A stretch of DNA of 64,000 nucleotides from SAR202 cluster bacterium Io17-Chloro-G2. Lineage in GTDB: Bacteria > Chloroflexota > Dehalococcoidia > Lucifugimonadales > UBA3495. The translations under genes were made by a program, and so were the position numbers. Position 1 is the stretch's first letter. The number at the start of each line of letters is the position of its first letter. The notes below the pieces were generated by a model that ran no database searches, was not told the origin of the DNA, and saw nothing but the letters and a program-made list of their open reading frames with translations. Positions 436 to 64,000 of the stretch are shown piece after piece. The stretch lies in the NCBI GenBank assembly GCA_002816875.1, contig MUCP01000010.1, positions 2,254-66,253 on the forward strand, read 5' to 3'.

Positions 436-1146
436 ATGGGCTTAACGATATCCGGCGGCGACCTGGGCTATTTCGCCTCCGGCCGGTTTTGCCGCCGCTG
501 CGCCTGGGTCCGCCTTCACGTCAGACCGCTGCCCTACCAGAGTTTTCCGGGCATTTTCAGCTCCATCGACCGCTACAACAAACTGGTGGTCAACAGCTAT
601 TTTGAACGTCACGGATGCCTGCCGTCCTGGCTGGACGGCCTGGGCCGGGTGGAGGCCAGCATCGACCCGCCTCACTGGTCGGCCTATTCGATCTTGGACC
701 CGGACTCCGGAGTCACCCTTCGGGGAGAGGCCGATGCCATCTTCAGGATGAGCGACGGCTCCTACACCATCGTGGACTACAAGACCTCCAGATATACGCC
801 TGGGCAACGGGGTATGTTCCGGAACTACGAGGTGCAGCTAAATTCCTACGCCTACATTGGAGAACGGCTGGACTTCGCCCCGGTCACCGGATTGGCCCTG
901 GCCTACATGGAGCCCGTGACCGATGAAGATACCGCCGGTCTTCCCGATATCACCGGCGGGCAGGGATTCAACCTGGGCTTTCAAGCTACGATCGTCCCGG
1001 TGGAAGTAAAGCCCGGCCGGCTGATTCCGCCATTGTTGGACCGGGCCCAAGAGATATTTGAAATGGAGCGGCGGCCGCCGGGAAAGCCAGGTTGCAAAGA
1101 TTGCCAGGCGGTGCAGGCCCTGCTGGATGGGTTGCTGGACGACTGA
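436..1146 (+). CDS. PD-(D/E)XK nuclease, RecB/Cas4-like, with N-terminal CxxC and C-terminal CxxC
   Basis: Motifs are present in the correct order: GEAD (GxxD), IVDYK (D/ExK), QLNSY (QxxxY). Cys pairs are CRRC near the N-terminus and CKDC near the C-terminus. Confidence 0.55.
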   Translation: MGLTISGGDLGYFASGRFCRRCAWVRLHVRPLPYQSFPGIFSSIDRYNKLVVNSYFERHGCLPSWLDGLGRVEASIDPPHWSAYSILDPDSGVTLRGEADAIFRMSDGSYTIVDYKTSRYTPGQRGMFRNYEVQLNSYAYIGERLDFAPVTGLALAYMEPVTDEDTAGLPDITGGQGFNLGFQATIVPVEVKPGRLIPPLLDRAQEIFEMERRPPGKPGCKDCQAVQALLDGLLDD

Positions 1147-9712: not shown

Positions 9713-10840
9713 CTAATCCTTCAGGGCTGGAATGACCTCCCGGCCCATCAGTTCCAGCGAACGCATGGTGTCGTGGTGTGATAGGGGCCCGCCTTGGGCC
9801 TCCAGTAGCAGCGCGCCCACTCCCAGGGTGTCCTTGATGTGCCGCAGTTGGCGGGTCACTGAATCCGGGTTTCCCACCACCAGGTGGTATCGGCTCTGTA
9901 ATTCTTCGTAGGAAAGCTCGTTCAGCGGGGTGGGGCGCCTTTGGGCCACCGCCGCGGCGCCGGCCCGGGACGTGTAGCCCGGTGGAGACCAATATTCCCT
10001 GGGCCCCCGCAGGGGATGGTTCATGCGCCACAGGAACGCTTTCCCCGCCTCTTGCGCCTTTTCTTCCGTGTCGTTGACGTGGCAACAGACCATGAAGGCA
10101 AAATTATCCGGGGCCGCTTCCCAGCCGTCGGCCGCCGCGTATTCCCGGTAGCGTGCGAACAGCCCTTGGGCCACGTCCAGCGGGGTCAGAAAAGCGGCGT
10201 AGGTGTACCGGTTCTTGGCGGCCCATTCCACCGTTTCCGGGCTGCCGGTCCCAGGTACCCACACCGGGGGATGGGGTTTCTGGATGGGAAGCATCCAGGG
10301 GTTGACGGCCCGGTATTGGTAATGCTTGCCCTCCCAGCGGAAGGGTCCAGGCGTGGTCCAGGCCTTGATTATCAGGTCATGGCACTCTTCGAACCGCTCC
10401 CGGTTATAGACGGGGTTGGTGTTGTTGGCCCAGCTTTCGATGCCGATGCCCCTGACGAACCCGGAGACTATCCGGCCTCCGGATATCACGTCCAGCATGG
10501 CTATCTCTTCGGCCAAGCGCGGCGGATTGTCCGATGTGGGCAGCATATTGCCCAGCATGAGTATCTTGGCTTTAGACGTGGTGCGGGCCAGAATGCCGCC
10601 GGTGATATTTACTTCCACGTCCATGCAAGATGGAGTGTTGTGGTGTTCGTTGATCATCAACCCGTCGAAACCCACATCCTCGGCGTGCTGGTATTCGTCC
10701 AGGTAGCGCTTGAACAGGTCGTGGGCTTTGTTGGGGTCGAAATAGGTGTTGGGGAAGGTGAGCCGCATGGACGGGAACTTCTCCGCCTCGGACTCGGGAA
10801 ACTCGGCGTAGGGGAACTCGGTGAAATAATAGACATCCAT
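9713..10840 (-). CDS. LLM-class (luciferase-like) flavin-dependent monooxygenase/oxidoreductase
   Basis: 375 aa with EDVGFDGLMINEHHNTP and typical TIM-barrel LLM motifs. Confidence 0.8.
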   Translation of the reverse strand: MDVYYFTEFPYAEFPESEAEKFPSMRLTFPNTYFDPNKAHDLFKRYLDEYQHAEDVGFDGLMINEHHNTPSCMDVEVNITGGILARTTSKAKILMLGNMLPTSDNPPRLAEEIAMLDVISGGRIVSGFVRGIGIESWANNTNPVYNRERFEECHDLIIKAWTTPGPFRWEGKHYQYRAVNPWMLPIQKPHPPVWVPGTGSPETVEWAAKNRYTYAAFLTPLDVAQGLFARYREYAAADGWEAAPDNFAFMVCCHVNDTEEKAQEAGKAFLWRMNHPLRGPREYWSPPGYTSRAGAAAVAQRRPTPLNELSYEELQSRYHLVVGNPDSVTRQLRHIKDTLGVGALLLEAQGGPLSHHDTMRSLELMGREVIPALKD

Positions 10841-10921
10841 GGGTGCGCCTCCGGCTTGGCCGTCTGTATTCGGCCGTTTGCGCTCAGGGGCGCCGGCCGG
10901 CTGAATGCGGGCAGCGAACTG

Positions 10922-11704
10922 CTAAAGAAAATCTAGCGCGATCTTGACGAACTCCTCGGTCTTTTCCACCTGGGGCACGTGTCCGCAATTGTCTATGACC
11001 ACCAGGTCGGAACCGGGGATGGCTTTGTTGAACATCTGGCCGCACTCCAGGGGGATCAGCCTATCGTTGCCGCCCCAAACGATGCGGGTGGGTATGGAGA
11101 CCCTGGCCAGCAAGCCCAACAGCCGGGGGTCGTACATGTAGGGTTTCCAGCAGATGCGCACCGACATCTCCCGGTTGCGTTCGGCGATGTCGGTTTGCTC
11201 GGGAGTGGGCTCTCCCCCGTAGATCGACTCGTATTCTGGCGCCTGCTTAGGGTCGTGGAACAGCAATTCGGTGACCTGGGCCGGACTGATTATGAAAATG
11301 TCGGCGATCTCGCCCTCCTTGGGCTGGATGCCCGCGGCGTCCACCAGCATGAGCTTACTGAAGGCGTGGCGGCAGTTGGCGGCGATCTCCGAGGCCAGCC
11401 ATCCGCCCATGGAAAAGCCGATGGCCCTTGCCCCTTCCAACCCCTGCTCCTCCAGGAACCAGGTGTAAAAAGAGGCCAAGTCGGCCATGGTTTCCAGCCA
11501 TTCCGGCCGGTCGGACTTGCCGTAGCCGGGGTGGCTGGGCAGGTAGACAGTATATTTTTCGGACAAAGCTCGGACGTAATTCAACCAGCCCGAATTACCG
11601 CCGGCCCCGTGAAGCAGGACCAAAGGCTCGCCGGAGCCGCCCTTCAGCACCTGGATCTTGGCGCCGCCCACGTCAACAATTTCCTCGGTGAATGCCGTGG
11701 CCAT
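10922..11704 (-). CDS. Alpha/beta-fold hydrolase (meta-cleavage-product/C-C hydrolase-like)
   Basis: LVLLHGAGG oxyanion region, GFSMGGW nucleophile elbow, C-terminal CGHVPQ(V)E histidine motif. AAGGAG RBS. Confidence 0.8.
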   Translation of the reverse strand: MATAFTEEIVDVGGAKIQVLKGGSGEPLVLLHGAGGNSGWLNYVRALSEKYTVYLPSHPGYGKSDRPEWLETMADLASFYTWFLEEQGLEGARAIGFSMGGWLASEIAANCRHAFSKLMLVDAAGIQPKEGEIADIFIISPAQVTELLFHDPKQAPEYESIYGGEPTPEQTDIAERNREMSVRICWKPYMYDPRLLGLLARVSIPTRIVWGGNDRLIPLECGQMFNKAIPGSDLVVIDNCGHVPQVEKTEEFVKIALDFL

Positions 11705-26070: not shown

Positions 26071-27057
26071 GTGGTGGAGTCTGCGACGATCGGAGAAATA
26101 GTCCTTGAGGTGGAAGACCTCCGCACCTACTTCCGCACCCGCTTTGGAACGGTAAAAGCGGTGGATGGTGTTAGTTTCAACCTGCGTAAAGGCGAGACCC
26201 TGGGCATCGTGGGTGAGTCGGGCTGCGGCAAATCCGTCACGATGCTATCGATGATGCGGCTGGTGCCCATTCCGCCGGGACGCATCGTGTCAGGCAAGAT
26301 CGTCTTAGATGGCGAGGACTTGCTTCAGCTCAGCGAAGGTGAGATGACCAACATCAGGGGCAGCAAGATCGCCCTAATCATCCAGGACCCCATGACCTCG
26401 CTGAACCCGGTTTTTTCCATAGGGAGTCAGGTTGCCGAGGCCATCAAGCTTCACCATGACATCCCCCACAGAAGCGTTGTAGATCAGGCGCTGGAAGTTC
26501 TGCGTAAGGTGAATATTCCCGCCGCGGAAACCAGAATGCGAGACTATCCCCACCAGATGAGCGGCGGTATGCGCCAGCGGGTGGTGGGCGCGATCGGGAT
26601 TTCATGCGAGCCCATGGTCCTTATTGCCGACGAACCCACCACGTCGTTGGACGTGACCATTCAAGCCCAATACTTGAAGCTGTTAAAAGACATCCAAAAG
26701 GAATCGGACCTTTCACTCATCTTCATCACCCACGACTTCGGCATCGTGGCGAAGATGTGCGACAGGGTCGCGGTGATGTACGCAGGCAGAATCGTGGAGA
26801 TGGGAAGCGTCCGGGACATCTTCAACCATCCTTCACATCCCTACACCGAGGCCTTGCTGGCATCGGTCCCCAAGATGGAACAGGACGTGGAGCGTTTGTA
26901 CTCCATTGAGGGACAACCTCCCACCTTGCACGACCTGCCCGAGGGCTGCCCATTTGCCCCTCGCTGCCCGCATGTCATGGACCGTTGCCGGACCGAGTAT
27001 CCACCCCAGATAGACCAGTCTGAAACCCACTACGCCTCTTGCTGGAGGCTGGCATGA
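26071..27057 (+). CDS. Oligopeptide/dipeptide ABC transporter ATP-binding protein (OppD/DppD type)
   Basis: Walker A GESGCGKS, signature MSGGMRQR, Walker B LIADEPT, C-terminal oligo_HPY region (HPYTEALL...CPFAPRC). Confidence 0.85.
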   Translation: MVESATIGEIVLEVEDLRTYFRTRFGTVKAVDGVSFNLRKGETLGIVGESGCGKSVTMLSMMRLVPIPPGRIVSGKIVLDGEDLLQLSEGEMTNIRGSKIALIIQDPMTSLNPVFSIGSQVAEAIKLHHDIPHRSVVDQALEVLRKVNIPAAETRMRDYPHQMSGGMRQRVVGAIGISCEPMVLIADEPTTSLDVTIQAQYLKLLKDIQKESDLSLIFITHDFGIVAKMCDRVAVMYAGRIVEMGSVRDIFNHPSHPYTEALLASVPKMEQDVERLYSIEGQPPTLHDLPEGCPFAPRCPHVMDRCRTEYPPQIDQSETHYASCWRLA

Positions 27058-30619: not shown

Positions 30620-30905
30620 AGCTGGATCCTCCTCATCTGATACCGATCGTTTTTCCGGCTTTCTCTGGCTACAATGCCTTCGCAATGCTCGAGAAGGCGA
30701 TTGTGAAGGTGAGTATAACCCCCACGGGAAACTGTCGGCAAATCATTGAATCCTGCGGCGCCCGGGCAATTTCCATCACCGAGCAGCTATAAAGGCACCA
30801 TATGCCAACGGTCCGCATCATATCCCTAACAAGACTCTCAAGGCCAATACCCGGCGAACATGCTGCAGATTCGGGCTCGCCGGGCACGTGGTGGATGGAG
30901 ACATC

Positions 30906-32027
30906 ATGAAGATGGGATACATCGTCCCAATACTTTTGGTGGGACTTTTGATAGCGGTGCTTTTTTTGCCCCAATTACGTCAAACGTTCTTGAAGCTGCG
31001 CAGCGAGAAAGTCACCATTGCGCAAACTGACAACGGGCGACCACTGGTTGGCGCAGCCGCCTTGGACCTGAACATCATCACGGTGCTGGGTAAAGACGGG
31101 ATTCCCGCGATACTAGATCCGGTGTTCCTGTCAGCGGAGGAAGCCCAGCGAAATATGCGGGACGGGGAAAGGGTGTTGGGCGTGTCCATAAATGGGGAGA
31201 GCAAGGCATACCCGCTCAACCTGCTCAGCCGCCATGAAATCGTCAACGACACGGTGGGAGGCAAACCCGTCGCGGTGACCTGGTGACCCCTCTGTTTTAC
31301 GGGCATTGTATATGCCCGCGAGATGGCCGGGGTTACACGAACATTCGGAGTTTCCGGCAAGCTGATCATGAACGCCCTGGTCATGTACGACCACCAGAGC
31401 GACACCCTTTGGAGTCAGTTCCTCAGCCGGGGCGTTCGCGGTCCATTGGCAGACACATCGCTGGAAATCGTCCCGTCATTGCAAACCACCTGGACCCAAT
31501 GGCTGGGCCTTCACCCGGACACCATGGTTTTAGACAAACGCGGGTATAACGTTGGCGACGGTTACGAAAGCTATTACCGGAACGGGTCGGCGGGAATCAT
31601 CGGAGAATCCAACAAGGACGACCGCCTGCCCACCAAGGAGCTGGTGGTCGGACTGGATCTGGAAGGAAAGACGATAGCATATCCCTTCCGCGAAATCGCC
31701 AACCAACCAGTGATCAACGACTTCTTCGCCGGACGAGATGTGCTGGTCACCTTCGAACTGGGGTCGGAGACTGGAGTGGTATTCGAACGCCAGGTCGATG
31801 GACGAACCTTGCACTTCAGGCCGGCCGCCCAGGATAGCCAGCGAGACGGAACGCTGCTGATGCAAGACGATGAGACAAGCACCATATGGCAGGCATTGAC
31901 TGGGAGGGCGATAGACGGGGAGTTGGAGGGAACGGTTTTAACCCGGCTGCCTTCCCATTATTCTTTCTGGTTCGCCTGGAGCGACTTTCATCCCGATACA
32001 GAGCTATACGCTGGTCCCACTGGTTAG
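30906..32027 (+). CDS. DUF3179-family protein containing an in-frame TGA (31284..31286) at the position of the first Cys of the family (T/S)(Y/W)-C-P-L-C motif; candidate selenoprotein, or a nonsense pseudogene
   Basis: ORFs 30888..31286 and 31323..32027 are in the same frame. Read-through gives ...KPVAVTW-[TGA]-PLCFTGIVYAREMAGVTRTFGVSGKLIMNALVMYDHQSDTLWSQ..., the contiguous DUF3179 core. N-terminal TM anchor. Confidence 0.55.
31300..31318 (+). promoter_or_regulatory. Stem-loop 13 nt downstream of the in-frame TGA (possible bacterial SECIS element)
   Basis: cgggcat-tgtat-atgcccg: 7-bp stem with a 5-nt loop containing GU. The loop begins 20 nt after the UGA. Flanking cccc (31287-90) and gggg (31329-32) could extend the structure. 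Confidence 0.3.
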
Positions 32028-32038
32028 AGCGGCCCCGG

Positions 32039-32875
32039 CTAATCCCTCGCCAGAAAGGCCGTGGCGTCCCTGACCCGGCGTCCCCACCACTCGGGGCCCT
32101 CTACCACGTACTTCCACTCGGGATTTTGCCGGGTGTCGCGGAGCCCAGCCATCACTTCTCGAAAGACCGATGCGCCGGCCTCGGCGAACTCGAAGTACCC
32201 GACAAAGTCGTAGTTCCCCTCCAGACCGTAGCCCTCGGGTGCGTGGATCAGCCGGCGGTTAACGCAAGGGACCCCGGCCGCAGAGACCAGGGCGTGTCCC
32301 TTGACCACCATCTCCTCGTTCTCGTCGTACCGGGGCAGGAAGAAACTCTCCCGGTGCAAGAAGTCCATCTCCCACCAGGCGGTGGTCTTGTTCATGGGCG
32401 TCACCGCCGCCAACGGATACCTGTCGCCGGGCCCCGGCGGCATGGCATGGACGTAGGCGAACTGGGTCATGGCGTGGCTGGTGTAGCTGCTGGGCCGCAT
32501 CACCCCGGCGAGAGTTTCCACGGAACCCCCTGCCCCTTGAACCAGCGCCCGAAGCACCGCTTCGTATTGCTTGATGGGCTCGAGGGCTGCGCACTCCAGC
32601 CGGATCAGACCAAGGGAATCCGAGAGCCCCGGATGGGCAATCTGTTGTTCGGAGGACATCCCAGCCTCGGCTCGCAACAACTGGAACCGCCCCATCTGAA
32701 ACGCCTCCTCTGTCGGCTGGCCGTCAACGTCGTGCATGTTCTCCAAGCCCCGCCCCAACAAATCCAACCCCTCGGCCATCTTCCGCTGGTCCCCTCCGCC
32801 ATCCGCAATTGTGACAAACAAGAAAAGCTGATGGCCTGTGACGGTGGTGGTCATGTTCAGGTCTGCGGGTTGCAT
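32039..32875 (-). CDS. Chlorite dismutase (Cld/HemQ-like) family protein
   Basis: 278 aa. ...TPMNKTTAWWEMDFLHRESFF...GH... resembles the Cld-family C-terminal heme-pocket region. The start ATG shares one base with the stop of the upstream gene (TGATG). Confidence 0.55.
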   Translation of the reverse strand: MQPADLNMTTTVTGHQLFLFVTIADGGGDQRKMAEGLDLLGRGLENMHDVDGQPTEEAFQMGRFQLLRAEAGMSSEQQIAHPGLSDSLGLIRLECAALEPIKQYEAVLRALVQGAGGSVETLAGVMRPSSYTSHAMTQFAYVHAMPPGPGDRYPLAAVTPMNKTTAWWEMDFLHRESFFLPRYDENEEMVVKGHALVSAAGVPCVNRRLIHAPEGYGLEGNYDFVGYFEFAEAGASVFREVMAGLRDTRQNPEWKYVVEGPEWWGRRVRDATAFLARD

Positions 32876-58697: not shown

Positions 58698-58725
58698 ATA
58701 ATTCATATCGAGAGGGAAAAGCGAA

Positions 58726-59337
58726 ATGAACAACGGAATGGTTAACTTTTGGGCTAGGTTAAAGGCCTGGCTCCCGGACCAGAGGGGCATCACCGGGTTG
58801 GAAACGGCAATCGTGCTGATTGCCTTCGTTGTGGTTTCATCGGTGTTTGCATTCGCCGCTCTGTCCACCGGCCTCTTCTCCAGTGACAAAGCCAAGGAGA
58901 CAATCTCGGCTGGACTGGCTGAGACGAGAGGTACCTTGGAGCAGAAAGGCTCGGTGATCCTGACGTCCAGCACCACCGGCACGTCGGGGGTGATCTCCCA
59001 GATAGAGTTCCAGGTATCCAACGCCGCCGCCGGCGAGCCCATCGACCTGACGCCGGGCAATACCATCATCCGGTACAGCGACAAGAACCAGGTCAAGAAC
59101 CTGACCACCACGGCCGACTTTACCGCGACCAACGTCGCCGCCTTCGGCGACAGTGACAACCTACTGGAAACCGGTGAGATCTTCGAGATCAAGCTGATCG
59201 ATCTAAATTCCAGATTGGACACGGCACTGGGGCCCAGCACTGAGTTCACCATCGAAGTCGTCCCACCCCGTGGCGCCGTGCTGTTCGTCAGCAGGAGAAC
59301 TCCAGTGTCGACGGAAACCAAAGACGTGCTGGATTGA
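58726..59337 (+). CDS. arlB: Archaellin (archaeal-type flagellin, FlaB/ArlB) with a class III signal peptide
   Basis: ...LPDQRG/ITGLETAIVLIAFVVVSSVFAFAAL... matches the archaeal flagellin N-terminal domain. The C-terminal beta-rich part (...DNLLETGEIFEIKL...EFTIEVVPPRGAVL...) follows the archaellin pattern. 203 aa. Confidence 0.8.
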   Translation: MNNGMVNFWARLKAWLPDQRGITGLETAIVLIAFVVVSSVFAFAALSTGLFSSDKAKETISAGLAETRGTLEQKGSVILTSSTTGTSGVISQIEFQVSNAAAGEPIDLTPGNTIIRYSDKNQVKNLTTTADFTATNVAAFGDSDNLLETGEIFEIKLIDLNSRLDTALGPSTEFTIEVVPPRGAVLFVSRRTPVSTETKDVLD

Positions 59338-59373
59338 CCCGGCTCTTCTATTGACAGTCCGGATCTTGGCTGA

Positions 59374-59393
59374 AGCGGCGTCTATGCGCCGCT
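59374..59393 (+). terminator. Hairpin in the 210-nt gap after the archaellin gene (possible attenuator/partial terminator)
   Basis: agcggcg-tctatg-cgccgct: 7-bp stem, no T-tract. Confidence 0.25.
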
Positions 59394-59547
59394 AGGCCAC
59401 CCATCGATAGAAAGATCTGTGGCGCGGCTCGCAGCCGTCAAAGCAGCGCACTGGCCTAAGAGCGGCCCCGGTGGCGGAGACACCCTGTGAGGTGCCTGAC
59501 ACCGGGGGTTGCTTCACTATCAAGACCGCAATGACAGGGAAGCCGCA

Positions 59548-61167
59548 ATGGCCGATGCCGACAGCAGGCTAGAGACCGTAGAGGATGAGCTCAAGGTTCT
59601 AAAGGGGGAGGTGAGGCGAACCCTGGTGGACCTTCGAGCTCTTTTGATGCGTGCTGATTCCCCGATGAACGACGGGTTTATTGGACGCCGGGACGCTTTG
59701 CCGGACCGGGAACCGGAGGATGGGCCCAAGCCGGCCAGGACGGAAATGTCTCAAGTGATCCAACAAGAAACTGGGCCAGCGCTTGCTGCGGCGCCAGCCC
59801 CGGCTCCGGCGCAACCGCCTGCTGCGGCGCCAGCCCCGGCTCCAGTGCAACCCCTGGCCGGAGGACCGGGACAGCCGCCAGTAGGGGGACCCGGGCAACC
59901 TCCGGGAGGGTTATTCCCGCCGGGCTCCGGTCCGCAACAAGGCAGCATTAATTCCCCGGTCATGGGTCCCCCGATAGCCACGCCTAACGGGGAACAAGAG
60001 CGGGCAATGGCCGAACAACAGCGAAGGATGGCTGACCAGGAAAGAAGGATAGCCGAGCAAGACAGGCAGATGGCCGATCTCAGCCGGATGGTTCAAGAAG
60101 GAGCTCAGGCGGCCGAGCAGGCGCCGGGCCAAGACCCGGAGCAGCAGCACAGGTTGGATGAACAACAACGCCAGATCGCCGACCAGAGCCAGCAGATGCC
60201 CGCCATGGACGGCAAGCTAGACGAACAAGGCGGACGCGCTGAAGGCGGCACCCATGGTAATGATGAGGAAAGAGATCATCGGGAACCGGAACAAATCCAG
60301 CAGATAGCCGACCTGAAGGTCCGGGTTGAGGAAGAAGGCCGGTCCACCAGGGAAGCGGTGGCCGAGGCCCAAATAACCAGCCAGCCGCCCAGCCAGCGGA
60401 GGACCGCGGAACCGGAAAATCAAATTGACCCTGACGACGTAGGACCGAAATTAGAGGAAGAAATAGATGAGCCATCTGTCCAAGGCCGGGACGATGAGTC
60501 TGATCGATACCAGGAGAATATACAGACCCCACGCCGGACCGCTGGCCGGCGCGAGGAAATTGCAAACCGGCAACGGGGCCAAAGGACGGGGGGAGGCCGT
60601 GATGTTGGGGGTCTTGGGAACAACGAAGCCTGGGACAAAGAACCGATAGACAAGGAACGCCATCCATCTGGATCCAAACCGGATGGCGTGAAAAGACCCA
60701 GGCCGGTAATAACTGGGAGTAACGATATCGTGGGTAACCACTACCGGAATTCAGGTCATGATGACGTGGAAGATCAGTACCGCGGTGAAAGCGGCAGCCA
60801 TGTCTATGACCAATACCATCAGTTATTCGAAGCCATAGGCGGCGCCGGCGGGGTGGACGATAACGCGGGAAACTCCGCTCCTCTGGACGTGAATCTTCTG
60901 GCGAGTTTGGTGAGGTGGATGACCCTGGCCAAAGGGAGGGTTGGGGAGGCTCGCCTAAAAAGGATATTGGATCTCTATTTAGGGTCTGGCCGAAGCTCGC
61001 CCCAGCTGCGGGAGTTGTTGGTCAGCGTTTCGAGCATGGTAGACACGGTTTCACCCGAAACGCCCCAGGCCGCCCAGGAATGCACTGACTTGCTATCCCA
61101 ACTTCACGGCATTTTGACCGGAGGGCTCCAAATAGCCCAGGTGCCTCAGATCAGCTTGTCTGAGTAG
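59548..61167 (+). CDS. FlaD/E (ArlD/E)-domain protein with a very long low-complexity central region
   Basis: The C-terminal ~100 aa (LDVNLLASLVRWMTLAKGRVGEARLKRILDLYLGSGRSSPQLRELL...) resembles the archaeal FlaD/E domain (W..L....G......L.YY...GWIS pattern). Position between arlB and arlF/G matches euryarchaeal operons. N-terminal coiled coil; A/P- and Q/E/R-rich middle. Confidence 0.5.
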   Translation: MADADSRLETVEDELKVLKGEVRRTLVDLRALLMRADSPMNDGFIGRRDALPDREPEDGPKPARTEMSQVIQQETGPALAAAPAPAPAQPPAAAPAPAPVQPLAGGPGQPPVGGPGQPPGGLFPPGSGPQQGSINSPVMGPPIATPNGEQERAMAEQQRRMADQERRIAEQDRQMADLSRMVQEGAQAAEQAPGQDPEQQHRLDEQQRQIADQSQQMPAMDGKLDEQGGRAEGGTHGNDEERDHREPEQIQQIADLKVRVEEEGRSTREAVAEAQITSQPPSQRRTAEPENQIDPDDVGPKLEEEIDEPSVQGRDDESDRYQENIQTPRRTAGRREEIANRQRGQRTGGGRDVGGLGNNEAWDKEPIDKERHPSGSKPDGVKRPRPVITGSNDIVGNHYRNSGHDDVEDQYRGESGSHVYDQYHQLFEAIGGAGGVDDNAGNSAPLDVNLLASLVRWMTLAKGRVGEARLKRILDLYLGSGRSSPQLRELLVSVSSMVDTVSPETPQAAQECTDLLSQLHGILTGGLQIAQVPQISLSE

Positions 61168-61243
61168 CCAACCCTTAAATTCAACCAACATTTCAGCCGA
61201 AAGTTCACGGGGAACTACCTTCACCTCCTAAACAGGTATTGTA

Positions 61244-61711
61244 ATGGAAAAGGCGATAACCACCTCCCTCATGATCATCGCCAGCATAGTTGCCGCTATG
61301 GCGTTGATCAACGCCGTCATCCCGGCCATGGGCAAGAGCGCCAGCGCCCTGGCGACGGCCAACTCGGCCACGGCCGACCGCATCCGGACTGATATTGAGA
61401 TCATCCATGCCACGGGGGACGACGCCGGCGAAGTAATAACCGTCTGGGTGAAAAACGTCGGCACCAAAAAGATCAATCCCATCAAATCCAGCGATATCAT
61501 CCTGACTACGCCCACCACCGTTGCTTCTCTACCCTATGTCAGCGGTTGCTCCTCAGAATGTTGGGACTACGCCCTGGAAGGGGGTGCAACTGATTGGAGC
61601 CAAGCAGTGACCGTTAAATTCACCCTGAAGACCACGGTTGACACCGGCGTTTACACCGTCACGGTCAGTTCTCCCAACGCCACCAGCGCCAGCGAAGATT
61701 TCAGCGTATAG
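61244..61711 (+). CDS. FlaF/FlaG (ArlF/ArlG)-family protein (ArlF by operon position)
   Basis: Archaellin-like N-terminal helix (AITTSLMIIASIVAAMALINAV) followed by ...ADRIRTDIEIIHA...VWVKNVGTKKI... beta-sandwich pattern. Confidence 0.65.
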   Translation: MEKAITTSLMIIASIVAAMALINAVIPAMGKSASALATANSATADRIRTDIEIIHATGDDAGEVITVWVKNVGTKKINPIKSSDIILTTPTTVASLPYVSGCSSECWDYALEGGATDWSQAVTVKFTLKTTVDTGVYTVTVSSPNATSASEDFSV

Positions 61712-61749
61712 CCAGGTATGCCAAGTTTTGATAAAGAGCCAGTTGGTAA

Positions 61750-62274
61750 ATGAGCATCATAGCGCCTGGAATAATGGTGATCACTGTATTTTTACTGGCG
61801 TCTGCCCTGATGTTTGGCACGTTTCTCACGGCTTCAGCAACTCAGGGAGATTCCTTGAAGGACCTTGCCACGGTCAACACTGCCCAAGCAGGGGACCAGC
61901 TTGATATCGTCAGCGCCGCGGTGGATACGCCCGATACTGGTGACCTGACGGTAACGGTGGATAACACAGGCTCCCGGTCAACGCCGGATTTCAGCCGGAT
62001 GGACGTGATTTTGGAATACATAGACCCTTCTGACAACGCCGTGGTTACATATATCGATTATTCGGCGTCGGCTCCCGGGAACAATGAATGGACCATTCCG
62101 GCGTTGGGAATCACGCCTGATTCTTTCAATCCCATCATGTGGGACCCCGATGAGGTCATCTCCATCGATATCTTGGTTTTCCCCGCGGTGAAGTCCAACA
62201 CTGCCGCCTTGGTGGCGGTGGTGACGCCGTGGGGGATAAGCGATACCTCTGCGGTAACCAATCCCAGTCCCTAG
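61750..62274 (+). CDS. FlaF/FlaG (ArlF/ArlG)-family protein (ArlG by operon position)
   Basis: N-terminal TM helix, ...LDIVSAAVD...LTVTVDNTGSRS..., 174 aa. Paralogous to 7036..7542. Confidence 0.65.
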   Translation: MSIIAPGIMVITVFLLASALMFGTFLTASATQGDSLKDLATVNTAQAGDQLDIVSAAVDTPDTGDLTVTVDNTGSRSTPDFSRMDVILEYIDPSDNAVVTYIDYSASAPGNNEWTIPALGITPDSFNPIMWDPDEVISIDILVFPAVKSNTAALVAVVTPWGISDTSAVTNPSP

Positions 62275-62333
62275 CGTATCCAGTCCGGGCCCAGGGGTGT
62301 GAAGGGGGGTGAAAAACAATAGAGGAGAAAAAT

Positions 62334-63050
62334 ATGACCACTTCGCTTGATGGCACCCGGGTCATATCCACCGGCAGCAAGGAGATCGACAAAAAGATGG
62401 GCGGCGGTATCCCGGTGGGGTCGTTGGTTCTGCTGGAAGGCCAATCCGACGCGGGTAAAAGCGTTCTGTGTCAGCATTTTTCCCATGGAACTCTCAGTTC
62501 CAGTATGTCCTCGGTTTATTACACCACTGAGAATACGGTAAAAAGTCTGGTGTCTCAGATGAGTTCGCTGAACCTGGATGTTACCGACTACTTCCTATGT
62601 GACCGGATGAGGATCTATCCCCTGGACATCGCCTCGTCAGAGGATTCCGACTCTGGGACGGCATTCCGGGTCCTGACCGACCACTTGGACAGTCTGCCCA
62701 GCCGGTTCAACTTGGCGGTCATCGATTCACTCACCGGATTGGTCGCCAAGAGTGATGACCACGCCATCATCGATTTTTTCGCCTCATGCAAAAGGCTGTG
62801 TGACGGCGGACGGACCGTATTGGCGGTGGTCCATTCTTATGCCTTCGATGACCGCATGCTCATTCGAATCAGATCGTTGTGCGATGCCCACCTGGTGATG
62901 AAGATGGAACAGGTGGGAGAGCGGCTGGTCAAGATATTAGAGGTTGCCAAGGTTCGCAACGCCGACCAGAGCACCGGCAACATCGTCAGCTTCGACGTAG
63001 AGCCGGGAATGGGCATGAAGATCATTCCTATAGCAAAGGCCAAGGCATAG
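62334..63050 (+). CDS. arlH: ArlH (FlaH), KaiC/RecA-like archaellum ATP-binding protein
   Basis: STGSKEIDKKMGGGIPVGSLVLLEGQSDAGKS (Walker A), ...LAVIDSLT... (Walker B-like), about 238 aa, immediately upstream of arlI. Confidence 0.8.
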   Translation: MTTSLDGTRVISTGSKEIDKKMGGGIPVGSLVLLEGQSDAGKSVLCQHFSHGTLSSSMSSVYYTTENTVKSLVSQMSSLNLDVTDYFLCDRMRIYPLDIASSEDSDSGTAFRVLTDHLDSLPSRFNLAVIDSLTGLVAKSDDHAIIDFFASCKRLCDGGRTVLAVVHSYAFDDRMLIRIRSLCDAHLVMKMEQVGERLVKILEVAKVRNADQSTGNIVSFDVEPGMGMKIIPIAKAKA

Positions 63051-63054
63051 ATCT

Positions 63055-64000
63055 ATGACCACAACAACGAAAAGGACGAAAAACGAGTCAAGCCATTCTC
63101 ACAAAGAAGGGATTGCCTCCTGCCCCGTGTTCCGGATGTTGCCTGAGCCGCTGCAACTGGAATCTCAAAAGAAAGAGTTCCTGTTGCAATACATTCACAG
63201 CCTGCCGATGGAAAATATCGGCGTGCCCGAGTATGTCGCCAGTCTAGAACGTAGCATGGGTGATATTAAAGACCCAAACCTGATCTATCCCATAGACAAG
63301 GGCCTGTACATACACGTTTTCTCCGACCCCTCCGACGCCCGTAACTTCTACGTGCCCATCGAGCCGGGAATGGCCGATGGCAATCTTGAATTGATGGAGG
63401 AACTGGAAGAACGCCTGGTGGATTATGTCGCCGAGTTGGAAAACATGACCGGCGACCAGGCCAGGAAATCCGCGGTCTTGCGCGGGATCGTGAAAAAGGC
63501 TTGCGTGGTGGTTAATCCCCGTGATGTACGAAAGGAGCGGGCCAAAGCCAAAAAAAATGGTTCGGCCAGGCTTCCAGTCACCAAGGCGGAAATGGCCACT
63601 TTGTCTTACCGGATGGAAAGGGACAAGCAAGGCATGGGGTTGCTGGAACCGCTCATCCTAGACACCAATATTGAAGACATAAGCTGCAGTGGCACAGGGC
63701 CGATCTTCATAGAGCACAAGATCTTCAAAAGCATGAAAAGCAGCGTGGGTTTCGAAACGCCCAACGAACTTGACTCCTTCGTCATCCAACTATCCGAGAA
63801 GATTGGGCGGCCCGTGACCTACCGGGAGCCCATCGTCGACGCTACGCTATTGGATGGTTCCAGGATCAACATGGTGTACGGTGAAGACGTCTCCAAGCGA
63901 GGAAGCAACTTCACCATCCGGAAATTCGCCACTGAACCGTTGAGCATGATTCAACTGGTGGAGTTTGGCGGTCTCACTTATGAAATGGCGGCCTACCTTT
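63055..64000 (+). CDS. arlI: ArlI (FlaI) archaellum assembly/motor ATPase, N-terminal 315 codons; the 3' end lies outside the window
   Basis: My translation of frame 1 from the ATG at 63055: ...NLIYPIDKGLYIHVFSDPSDARNFYVPIEP..., ...LEPLILDTNIEDISCSGTGPIFIEHKIF..., ...IVDATLLDGSRINMVYGEDVSKRGSNFTIRKF... This is the typical FlaI N-terminal and pre-Walker region. The ORF is absent from the ORF track because it has no stop within the window. Confidence 0.85.
   Translation, partial: MTTTTKRTKNESSHSHKEGIASCPVFRMLPEPLQLESQKKEFLLQYIHSLPMENIGVPEYVASLERSMGDIKDPNLIYPIDKGLYIHVFSDPSDARNFYVPIEPGMADGNLELMEELEERLVDYVAELENMTGDQARKSAVLRGIVKKACVVVNPRDVRKERAKAKKNGSARLPVTKAEMATLSYRMERDKQGMGLLEPLILDTNIEDISCSGTGPIFIEHKIFKSMKSSVGFETPNELDSFVIQLSEKIGRPVTYREPIVDATLLDGSRINMVYGEDVSKRGSNFTIRKFATEPLSMIQLVEFGGLTYEMAAYL

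Follow-up and report, generated by a model that had tools for sequence, protein, structure and literature searches.

A conserved in-frame TGA in a DUF3179 gene of a SAR202 bacterium is a probable selenocysteine codon

Does an in-frame TGA in the middle of a gene mark the end of a short protein, an error, or a codon that is read as selenocysteine (Sec)? This question is raised by a locus in a 64,000-nucleotide stretch of the genome of SAR202 cluster bacterium Io17-Chloro-G2 (contig MUCP01000010.1; the whole stretch is hereafter called the window, and coordinates without a locus name refer to it). An earlier reading, made from the letters of the window and here called the sequence-only reading, had noted two adjacent open reading frames (ORFs) split by a TGA alone and had proposed that together they encode a selenoprotein of the DUF3179 family. 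Based on the comparison with relatives reported here, genuine Sec recoding of this TGA, at positions 31284-31286, appears very likely.

The reading frame across the TGA and its relatives

In the raw sequence and the ORF list, TGA 31284-31286 was the sole stop between the same-frame ORFs 30888/30906..31286 and 31323..32027 (local sequence GTG ACC TGG TGA CCC CTC TGT TTT ACG GGC ATT GTA TAT GCC CGC), and the read-through product GGKPVAVTW-U-PLCFTGIVYAREMAG was exactly as the sequence-only reading had written it. The likely start is ATG 30906, rather than the GTG at 30888 with which the mechanical ORF begins (coordinates of all features are given in Table 1). For the Pfam search of the joined product, Cys was put in place of the stop. 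The product matched DUF3179 (PF11376) over the entire model (1-292 out of 292 positions; E = 7.1e-89; 298.5 bits, gathering cut-off 27), and the match, covering residues 63-365, runs across the TGA; hence, a single domain spans the site. NCBIfam contained no model for the joined protein. The public gene call consists of 31323-32027 alone, a 234-aa "hypothetical protein BZY80_01290" (P0001, 100% identical, on an 80,301-bp contig). The window has a G+C content of 58%, and all three stop codons are used in it.

According to the sequence-only reading, the TGA should occupy the first Cys of a family motif (T/S)(Y/W)CPLC. The alignment is in agreement with this: the TGA column was Cys in 16 full-length homologues with 44–52% identity to the window protein, and the aligned family motif was AVT(Y/W)-C-P-L-C-F-(T/S)-G, with the TGA at the first Cys. 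Among the best 120 database relatives, 37 had Cys at the site and one (P0006) had Arg, while 82 were gene calls that started after the site, 0 to ~25 residues past it. Such short gene calls are the signature of gene finders halting at an in-frame TGA. For annotation, this means that DUF3179 Sec genes are split or shortened in public databases, and SAR202 selenoproteomes are under-counted for this reason.

The scan of relatives was restricted to one genome per GTDB species and comprised 80 loci, all from metagenome-assembled genomes of Dehalococcoidia/Chloroflexota/SAR202, at 49–88% protein identity. The homologous codon was TGA in 80/80 fetched loci, in the context W-TGA-P-L-C. Together with the second tandem copy in locus L069 and the window gene, these gave 82 Sec sites, in all of which TGA was followed by C and preceded by TGG. 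UGA-C is the weakest and leakiest termination context in bacteria. Invariant residues in the 82 Sec forms were W126, P128, L129, C130, E111, N114, D115 and the FGVSG segment, and H110 was kept in 77 of them. The alternation of TGA with TGC or TGT, which the sequence-only reading had recommended looking for among relatives, was present, with TGC or TGT in seven Cys-form loci. The fact that the SAR202-type clade universally uses Sec, not Cys, suggests that catalysis or coordination depends critically on this residue.

Two side observations concern the site itself. Where all 82 Sec forms had Trp (TGG) before the site, the Cys forms (n = 37) had Tyr in 27, Trp in 6 and Phe in 4 cases; Trp before the Sec codon is a residue or codon preference tied to Sec use. 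Moreover, P0006 (locus L083, an ENA scaffold of 2309 bp) has AGA (Arg) for TGA at locus positions 460-462. The hairpin described below is retained there with one G-U pair and the C-terminal extension is aberrant, and the copy is either an assembly error or decaying.

The two gene halves were compared using pN and pS, the proportions of differing nonsynonymous and synonymous sites in relatives versus the window sequence. On both sides of the TGA, pS was ~0.68, which is near saturation, and pN was 0.24 upstream and 0.28 downstream. The resulting pN/pS was ~0.36 upstream and 0.41 downstream, with mean identities of 0.65 and 0.57, respectively. For the closest relative, pN/pS was 0.04/0.35 upstream and 0.07/0.46 downstream. 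No additional stops were found in any compared relative. These values indicate that both gene halves are under purifying selection, and the decay of the downstream half that the sequence-only reading had named as the mark of a pseudogene was not seen.

The hairpin downstream of the TGA

A stem-loop starting 13 nt past the TGA, with its loop 20 nt past it and with a geometry within the loose range of bacterial selenocysteine insertion sequence (SECIS) elements, had also been proposed from the window alone. The hairpin (cgggcat-tgtat-atgcccg) was found in exactly this position. Its predicted energy was -10.8 kcal/mol when folded alone and -28.2 kcal/mol for the 62-nt stretch (z = -4.5), and 0/200 shuffles were as stable. 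The window contains 122 in-frame TGAs that have an open frame on both sides, and of these TGA 31284 had the most stable downstream fold. In the published bacterial SECIS (bSECIS) model, on which bSECISearch is built, the loop has 3–9 nt, the upper stem 4–16 bp, the spacing between UGA and loop is 16–37 nt and the minimum free energy is at most -7.5 kcal/mol, with a G within the first two loop positions that is usually followed by G or U (PMC13188914, Fig. 2A). The window hairpin agrees with the model in every respect, with a loop of 5 nt, a stem of 7 bp, G at loop position 2, and the spacing of 20 nt and the energy given above. The proposed geometry is thus borne out by the published model, and the stem also co-varies among relatives.

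The 7-bp stem was present at the identical codon register in all 82 Sec sites. In the 72 distinct sequences, 98.6% of the stem cells were paired, as compared to 26–45% when the 3' partner was slid by 1–3 columns. Compensatory double changes were observed at 4/7 stem pairs (43 cells): 26 sequences had C-G for G-C, 11 had U-A or A-U for C-G, 4 had A-U for G-C, and 2 had G-C for A-U. None of 500 shuffles reached the observed pairing and covariation. The apical loop followed the pattern N-G-(U/G)-N-U, in which the G was invariant (82/82). Since the two arms of the stem code for (T/S)(G/A/S)I and Y(A/G/S)R, compensatory changes that keep the pairing show up as coupled changes of amino acids on the two sides, as in TGIVYAR, SAIVYGR, SAIVYSR, SSIVYAR and SGIGYSR. 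Constraint on the protein alone would hardly account for these coupled substitutions. The locus is a clean case of an RNA signal constraining a protein sequence: on either side of Ile-Val, at a distance of three residues, the SECIS stem imposes paired substitutions (Gly/Ala, Ala/Gly, Ala/Ser and others).

The Cys forms served as a control for the hairpin. In the Sec forms, all seven stem positions were paired in 75 sites and six of seven in the other 7 sites. In the seven Cys-form genes (TGC/TGT), the numbers of paired positions out of seven were 4, 5, 3, 5, 7, 1 and 3. Hence, the hairpin is degraded in 6/7 Cys-form genes and is linked to the TGA. The one Cys form that retains the full hairpin (L106; TGT, CLLC) adjoins a Sec-form paralogue with an identical hairpin sequence, which suggests a recent duplication and then a conversion of TGA to TGT. 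Tandem DUF3179 paralogues, a Cys form (TGT) with a Sec form (TGA) immediately after it, were observed at L106 3001-5510 and L108 1-2073; in L069, both tandem copies, at 10220 and 11532, are Sec forms.

For the window sequence alone, lower helices that include the UGA were predicted (Table 1). The lower helix was dropped from the SECIS, as pairs 15-21/43-49 were mostly unpaired in relatives, and the lower helices probably do not belong to the conserved signal.

Decoding of the TGA and alternative explanations

According to the explanation that we favor, 30906-32027 is one gene, and UGA 31284-31286 would be decoded co-translationally as Sec. By analogy with the established pathway in bacteria, the hairpin 31300-31318, acting as a SECIS, would recruit SelB and Sec-tRNA(Sec) to a ribosome paused at the weak UGA-C. 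The product would be a 373-residue DUF3179 protein, presumably held outside the cytoplasm by its N-terminal hydrophobic anchor or signal. It would consist of two tandem beta-rich domain copies, the first of which may display U127-P-L-C130 in a tight turn between beta strands.

The genomes of relatives shed light on the decoding trait. In five loci (L045, L047, L049, L057 and L060), a selD gene with 42–45% identity to E. coli SelD (tblastn, E down to 1e-80) was located 2–10 kb downstream of the DUF3179 gene on the opposite strand, and a sixth selD (L109 ~9960-10963) was located on the same chromosome as L073. In all six selD genes, the codon matching E. coli Cys17 is an in-frame TGA (CAG-TGA-ASKFSP versus GAG-C-GCKISP). 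Sec-containing SelD is a classic selenoprotein and needs Sec decoding. Since relatives carry this Sec-type selD, the clade has the Sec-decoding trait, from which we infer Sec decoding in Io17-Chloro-G2 itself. The linkage between selD and the DUF3179 gene is synteny and not an operon, because the two lie on opposite strands with unrelated ORFs between them. These Dehalococcoidia selD genes are called short (~306–324 aa) throughout the protein database, and in L057 selD adjoins a PALP (cysteine-synthase-like) gene. Three tblastn matches to selB were rejected, as they were generic EF-Tu-type GTPase domains. A protein search with SAR202 SelD returned no match named for Io17-Chloro-G2, and ARAGORN found no tRNA-Sec in the later-fetched loci.

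Several results weigh against Sec recoding. ARAGORN, Rfam and tblastn searches with E. coli SelA, SelB and SelD detected no selA, selB, selD or tRNA-Sec in the 64-kb window, and no sel genes were found in ~18 kb of flank added from identical contigs. Likewise, tRNA-Sec, selA and selB were not found in 1.46 Mb of related loci, which consisted of 20-kb samples per genome. None of the SECIS families in Rfam matched at gathering score, and clustering of the gene neighborhoods of 81 loci revealed no conserved operon around the DUF3179 gene. A sequence search of the PDB gave no match, and Foldseek matches of a structure model to the PDB (see below) were weak (best E 0.014), with Rieske-type domains as the only matches with a probability of at least 0.8. 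Finally, DUF3179 belongs to the in-silico predictions among selenoprotein families (PMC9312934).

A genome-wide reassignment of TGA to Trp or Gly (genetic codes 4 or 25) would turn the locus into an ordinary gene, and apart from the in-frame TGA itself nothing speaks for it. The stops of the 39 non-overlapping window ORFs of at least 200 aa were TAG in 15, TAA in 12 and TGA in 12 cases, and the last group includes 436..1146 and 26071..27057, the two ORFs from which the sequence-only reading had rightly concluded that TGA is an ordinary stop elsewhere. Furthermore, the TGA column is Cys, neither Trp nor Gly, and among the 122 in-frame TGA sites in the window neither another gene with a split look nor a convincing candidate for a second selenoprotein was seen by inspection, the homologue test having been applied at 31284 alone. 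Reassignment is thus refuted, and its probability is vanishingly small. Highly improbable, too, is a pseudogene, or a TGA produced by a sequencing or assembly error, either of which would leave the locus with no full-length product. The public annotation of a short 234-aa hypothetical protein fits this explanation, and P0006/L083, with its AGA and aberrant C-terminal tail, shows that damaged or erroneous copies do occur. However, the identical TGA is present in 80/80 independent genomes, down to 49% identity, both halves show the pattern of purifying selection with no other stops or frameshifts, and the hairpin, which co-varies, is linked to the TGA. As the source of this conservation pattern, a pseudogene or sequencing error is effectively refuted.

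It also seems improbable that the UGA is used without Sec, either by near-cognate read-through (Trp/Cys), for which the hairpin and the weak UGA-C context would be of help, or by termination and re-initiation at ATG 31323, which would yield two polypeptides. UGA-C is established as the leakiest stop context in bacteria and is invariant here, an ATG lies 36 nt downstream of the TGA, and no Sec machinery was seen for Io17-Chloro-G2 in the 64-kb window, all of which would suit such a mechanism. Yet the 12 codons from the TGA to ATG 31323 are conserved in frame, with Cys130 in 82/82 sequences, whereas the ATG is absent at this place in most relatives, for which gene callers choose scattered starts. 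The hairpin, with its invariant loop G, conforms to the consensus for SECIS elements of the SelB type; the Sec-type selD of relatives itself needs Sec decoding; and DUF3179 has already been catalogued as a selenoprotein family. Sec recoding of UGA 31284-31286 therefore remains the explanation that we consider very likely.

The DUF3179 protein, its surroundings and known systems

The features of the locus are collected in Table 1. The hydrophobic N-terminus is probably a signal anchor or signal peptide, with which the DUF3179 domain would come to lie outside the cytoplasm; lipobox-like N-termini were observed in homologues (..LALAAC.. in P0033 and ..LLLFAVAC.. in L049). Alignment of the first repeat to the second with hhalign gave a probability of 99.9% (E 1.8e-31). 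As judged from this alignment, the DUF3179 domain is an internal duplication, with U/C-P-L-C in the first repeat only.

Table 1 Features of the DUF3179 locus in the window (predicted or read from the sequence).
Feature	Positions	Strand	Remarks
Shine-Dalgarno-like GGAG	30897..30900	+	5 nt 5' of ATG 30906; read from sequence
Candidate complete selenoprotein gene, DUF3179 family	30906..32027	+	373 codons (372 residues + Sec127); stop TAG 32025-32027
N-terminal hydrophobic segment MKMGYIVPILLVGLLIAVLFLP	30906..30971	+	residues 1-22; Kyte-Doolittle 19-residue mean up to 2.54
DUF3179 repeat 1 with UPLC	31161..31532	+	residues 86-209
UGA as probable Sec (U127), position 1 of U-P-L-C	31284..31286	+	Cys column in homologues; conserved TGA
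Extended lower helices including UGA (predicted)	31284..31335	+	window sequence alone, -28.2 kcal/mol
TGT = Cys130, UxxC partner of Sec127	31293..31295	+	Cys in 82/82 Sec-form sequences
Putative bacterial SECIS core	31300..31318	+	7-bp stem 31300-31306/31312-31318, loop UGUAU 31307-31311; encodes T132-G-I-V-Y-A-R138
DUF3179 repeat 2, no Cys/Sec motif	31632..32009	+	residues 243-368; ELGS aligned with UPLC

A structure model was made with AlphaFold2 for the Cys homologue P0033 (mean pLDDT 85.6, pTM 0.80). It places CPLC in a turn between two beta strands, a geometry closer to a metal-binding "knuckle" than to the helix N-cap seen in CxxC enzymes of the thioredoxin (Trx) type and, as far as the model goes, leaning slightly to ligand binding. 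The Rieske-type Foldseek matches of this model had probabilities of 0.93–1.0 over ~100 aligned columns, with target-normalised TM values of up to 0.58, and comprised the arsenite oxidase small subunit (AioB), NirD and Rieske ferredoxins; the other Foldseek matches were long, low-probability alignments to unrelated proteins. The Pfam Rieske family gave no match at E ≤10, and hhalign against HcaC, NirD and a small Rieske alignment gave no significant match (probability <1%). Besides the fold match, the likeness to Rieske domains includes their box II, C-P-x-H (CPLH in E. coli HcaC), which resembles CPLC; the DUF3179 protein differs in that not all four Rieske ligands are present. Three weak alignments of the CPLC register to the Rieske cluster-binding boxes were mutually inconsistent, and we make no claim based on them. 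As the resemblance is at the fold level alone, with no profile match, the protein was not classed among the Rieske [2Fe-2S] proteins, and the modeled fold relationship is taken as a lead only.

With thioredoxin-fold UxxC/CxxC oxidoreductases (Trx-, DsbA- and Prx-like), the DUF3179 protein shares a Sec/Cys pair two residues apart in which Sec and Cys are interchangeable, and with DsbA it shares a probable extracytoplasmic location. In contrast to these enzymes, its motif is modeled in a beta turn and not at the N-terminus of a helix. It was not assigned to this fold, as the surroundings of the motif are all-beta and no Trx-family match was obtained in Pfam or among PDB folds. The presumed extracytoplasmic Sec/Cys site of the DUF3179 protein might, very tentatively, serve selenol/thiol-selenenylsulfide cycling or the binding of soft metals or metalloids, and any specific biochemical function for the selenoprotein would be a doubtful assignment. 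A further proposal, which we regard as unlikely, is that Sec DUF3179 is a near-universal and hitherto unannotated core selenoprotein of SAR202/Dehalococcoidia, an abundant lineage of the deep ocean, with Rieske-derived tandem domains, in which the UPLC turn has replaced the cluster loop and forms an extracytoplasmic metal/metalloid or electron-relay site. Its support comes from the distribution (80/80 genomes) and a weak fold resemblance. If true, an extracytoplasmic selenolate/thiolate metal or electron-relay site would be a chemistry undescribed for any characterized selenoprotein.

The surroundings of the gene vary among the loci, with two arrangements confined to sub-clades. A same-strand gene for a 400-aa GNAT-domain protein was located upstream in 28 loci (e.g., L062 8683-9885, + strand), and 18 loci had a divergent extracytoplasmic function (ECF) sigma factor together with a DUF5667 protein, possibly an anti-sigma factor (e.g., L061 7352-8017 and L034 3463-4728, both - strand). 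Neither arrangement occurs in the window, where the neighbors are unrelated and include glyoxalase-family, weakly chlorite-dismutase-like, amidohydrolase and SBBP propeller proteins. The convergent downstream neighbor at 32039-32875 (- strand, 278 aa) matched the chlorite-dismutase family at E 4.8e-4 and 20.3 bits, below the cut-off of 25. One tRNA-Gly, the sole Rfam match, was the only RNA gene detected in the window (ARAGORN, Rfam). Farther away, at ~58700-64000 (ORFs 59509..61167, 61244..61711, 61750..62274 and 62334..63050) and L087 6393-13896, this Chloroflexota genome has an archaellum-like locus, in which a cluster of genes for archaellin (archaeal-type flagellin, PF01917) is followed by genes for two ATPases, one KaiC/FlaH-like and one T2SSE/FlaI-like, and for a large protein that has no annotation. 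The flank upstream contains a further PF01917 gene (L086 14521-15027).

The protein family itself is not new to selenium biology. Table 1 of Zhang et al. 2022 (PMC9312934) has the entry "DUF3179 domain-containing protein, pfam11376, UxxC/T", and DUF3179 UxxC/T is also tabulated in a 2026 review in Applied and Environmental Microbiology (PMC13188914). Both reviews credit Zhang & Gladyshev 2007 and the metagenome of the Olavius algarvensis delta-1 symbiont (PMC9312934, PMC13188914; PMC1976440), where new families were backed by TGA/Cys pairs and SECIS-like stem-loops (PMC1976440). When compared with the review tables, the window motif has the form of the UxxC/T subfamily, Sec standing in for the first Cys of the conserved CxxC (U127-P-L-C130). 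In the table for surface-ocean Global Ocean Sampling (GOS) data, OS_HP1 is a UxxC family with no domain then assigned (1 Sec and 69 Cys sequences) and OS_HP2 is pfam07610 with a UxC motif; by elimination from table order and motifs, the DUF3179 family is probably OS_HP1. The sequence-only reading had expected a genuine case to assign redox chemistry to DUF3179. As a novelty this does not stand, since UxxC/T is already in published selenoprotein catalogues and the inference has been made there. Our literature search found no relevant paper joining SAR202 with selenocysteine. The window gene thus adds a new and well-supported, though mis-annotated, member to a family of predicted selenoproteins that had been catalogued before. 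New here are the strength of the comparative evidence and the Sec form as the rule across SAR202-type genomes, and also the use of Cys forms as a control for the hairpin and the recognition that the DUF3179 domain is built as a tandem repeat.

Compared with known systems, the hairpin resembles the bacterial SECIS, with E. coli fdhF as its archetype, in being an in-ORF hairpin directly past the UGA with an upper stem and a loop G followed by U; it differs in having no conserved bulged U or lower helix. Sec-containing SelD co-occurs with Sec-form DUF3179 in six related genomes and has Sec in place of E. coli Cys17, but it is another protein, was not found in the window and is encoded on the opposite strand with unrelated ORFs between. 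The closest likeness is to the published DUF3179 selenoproteins, which share with the window gene the same full-length Pfam domain, the UxxC motif, Cys homologues and a stem-loop past the UGA. Whereas the published examples come from a deltaproteobacterial worm symbiont, the window gene belongs to a deep-ocean SAR202 member of the Chloroflexota, and whereas GOS OS_HP1 is mostly a Cys family, the Sec form was present in 80/80 SAR202-type genomes.

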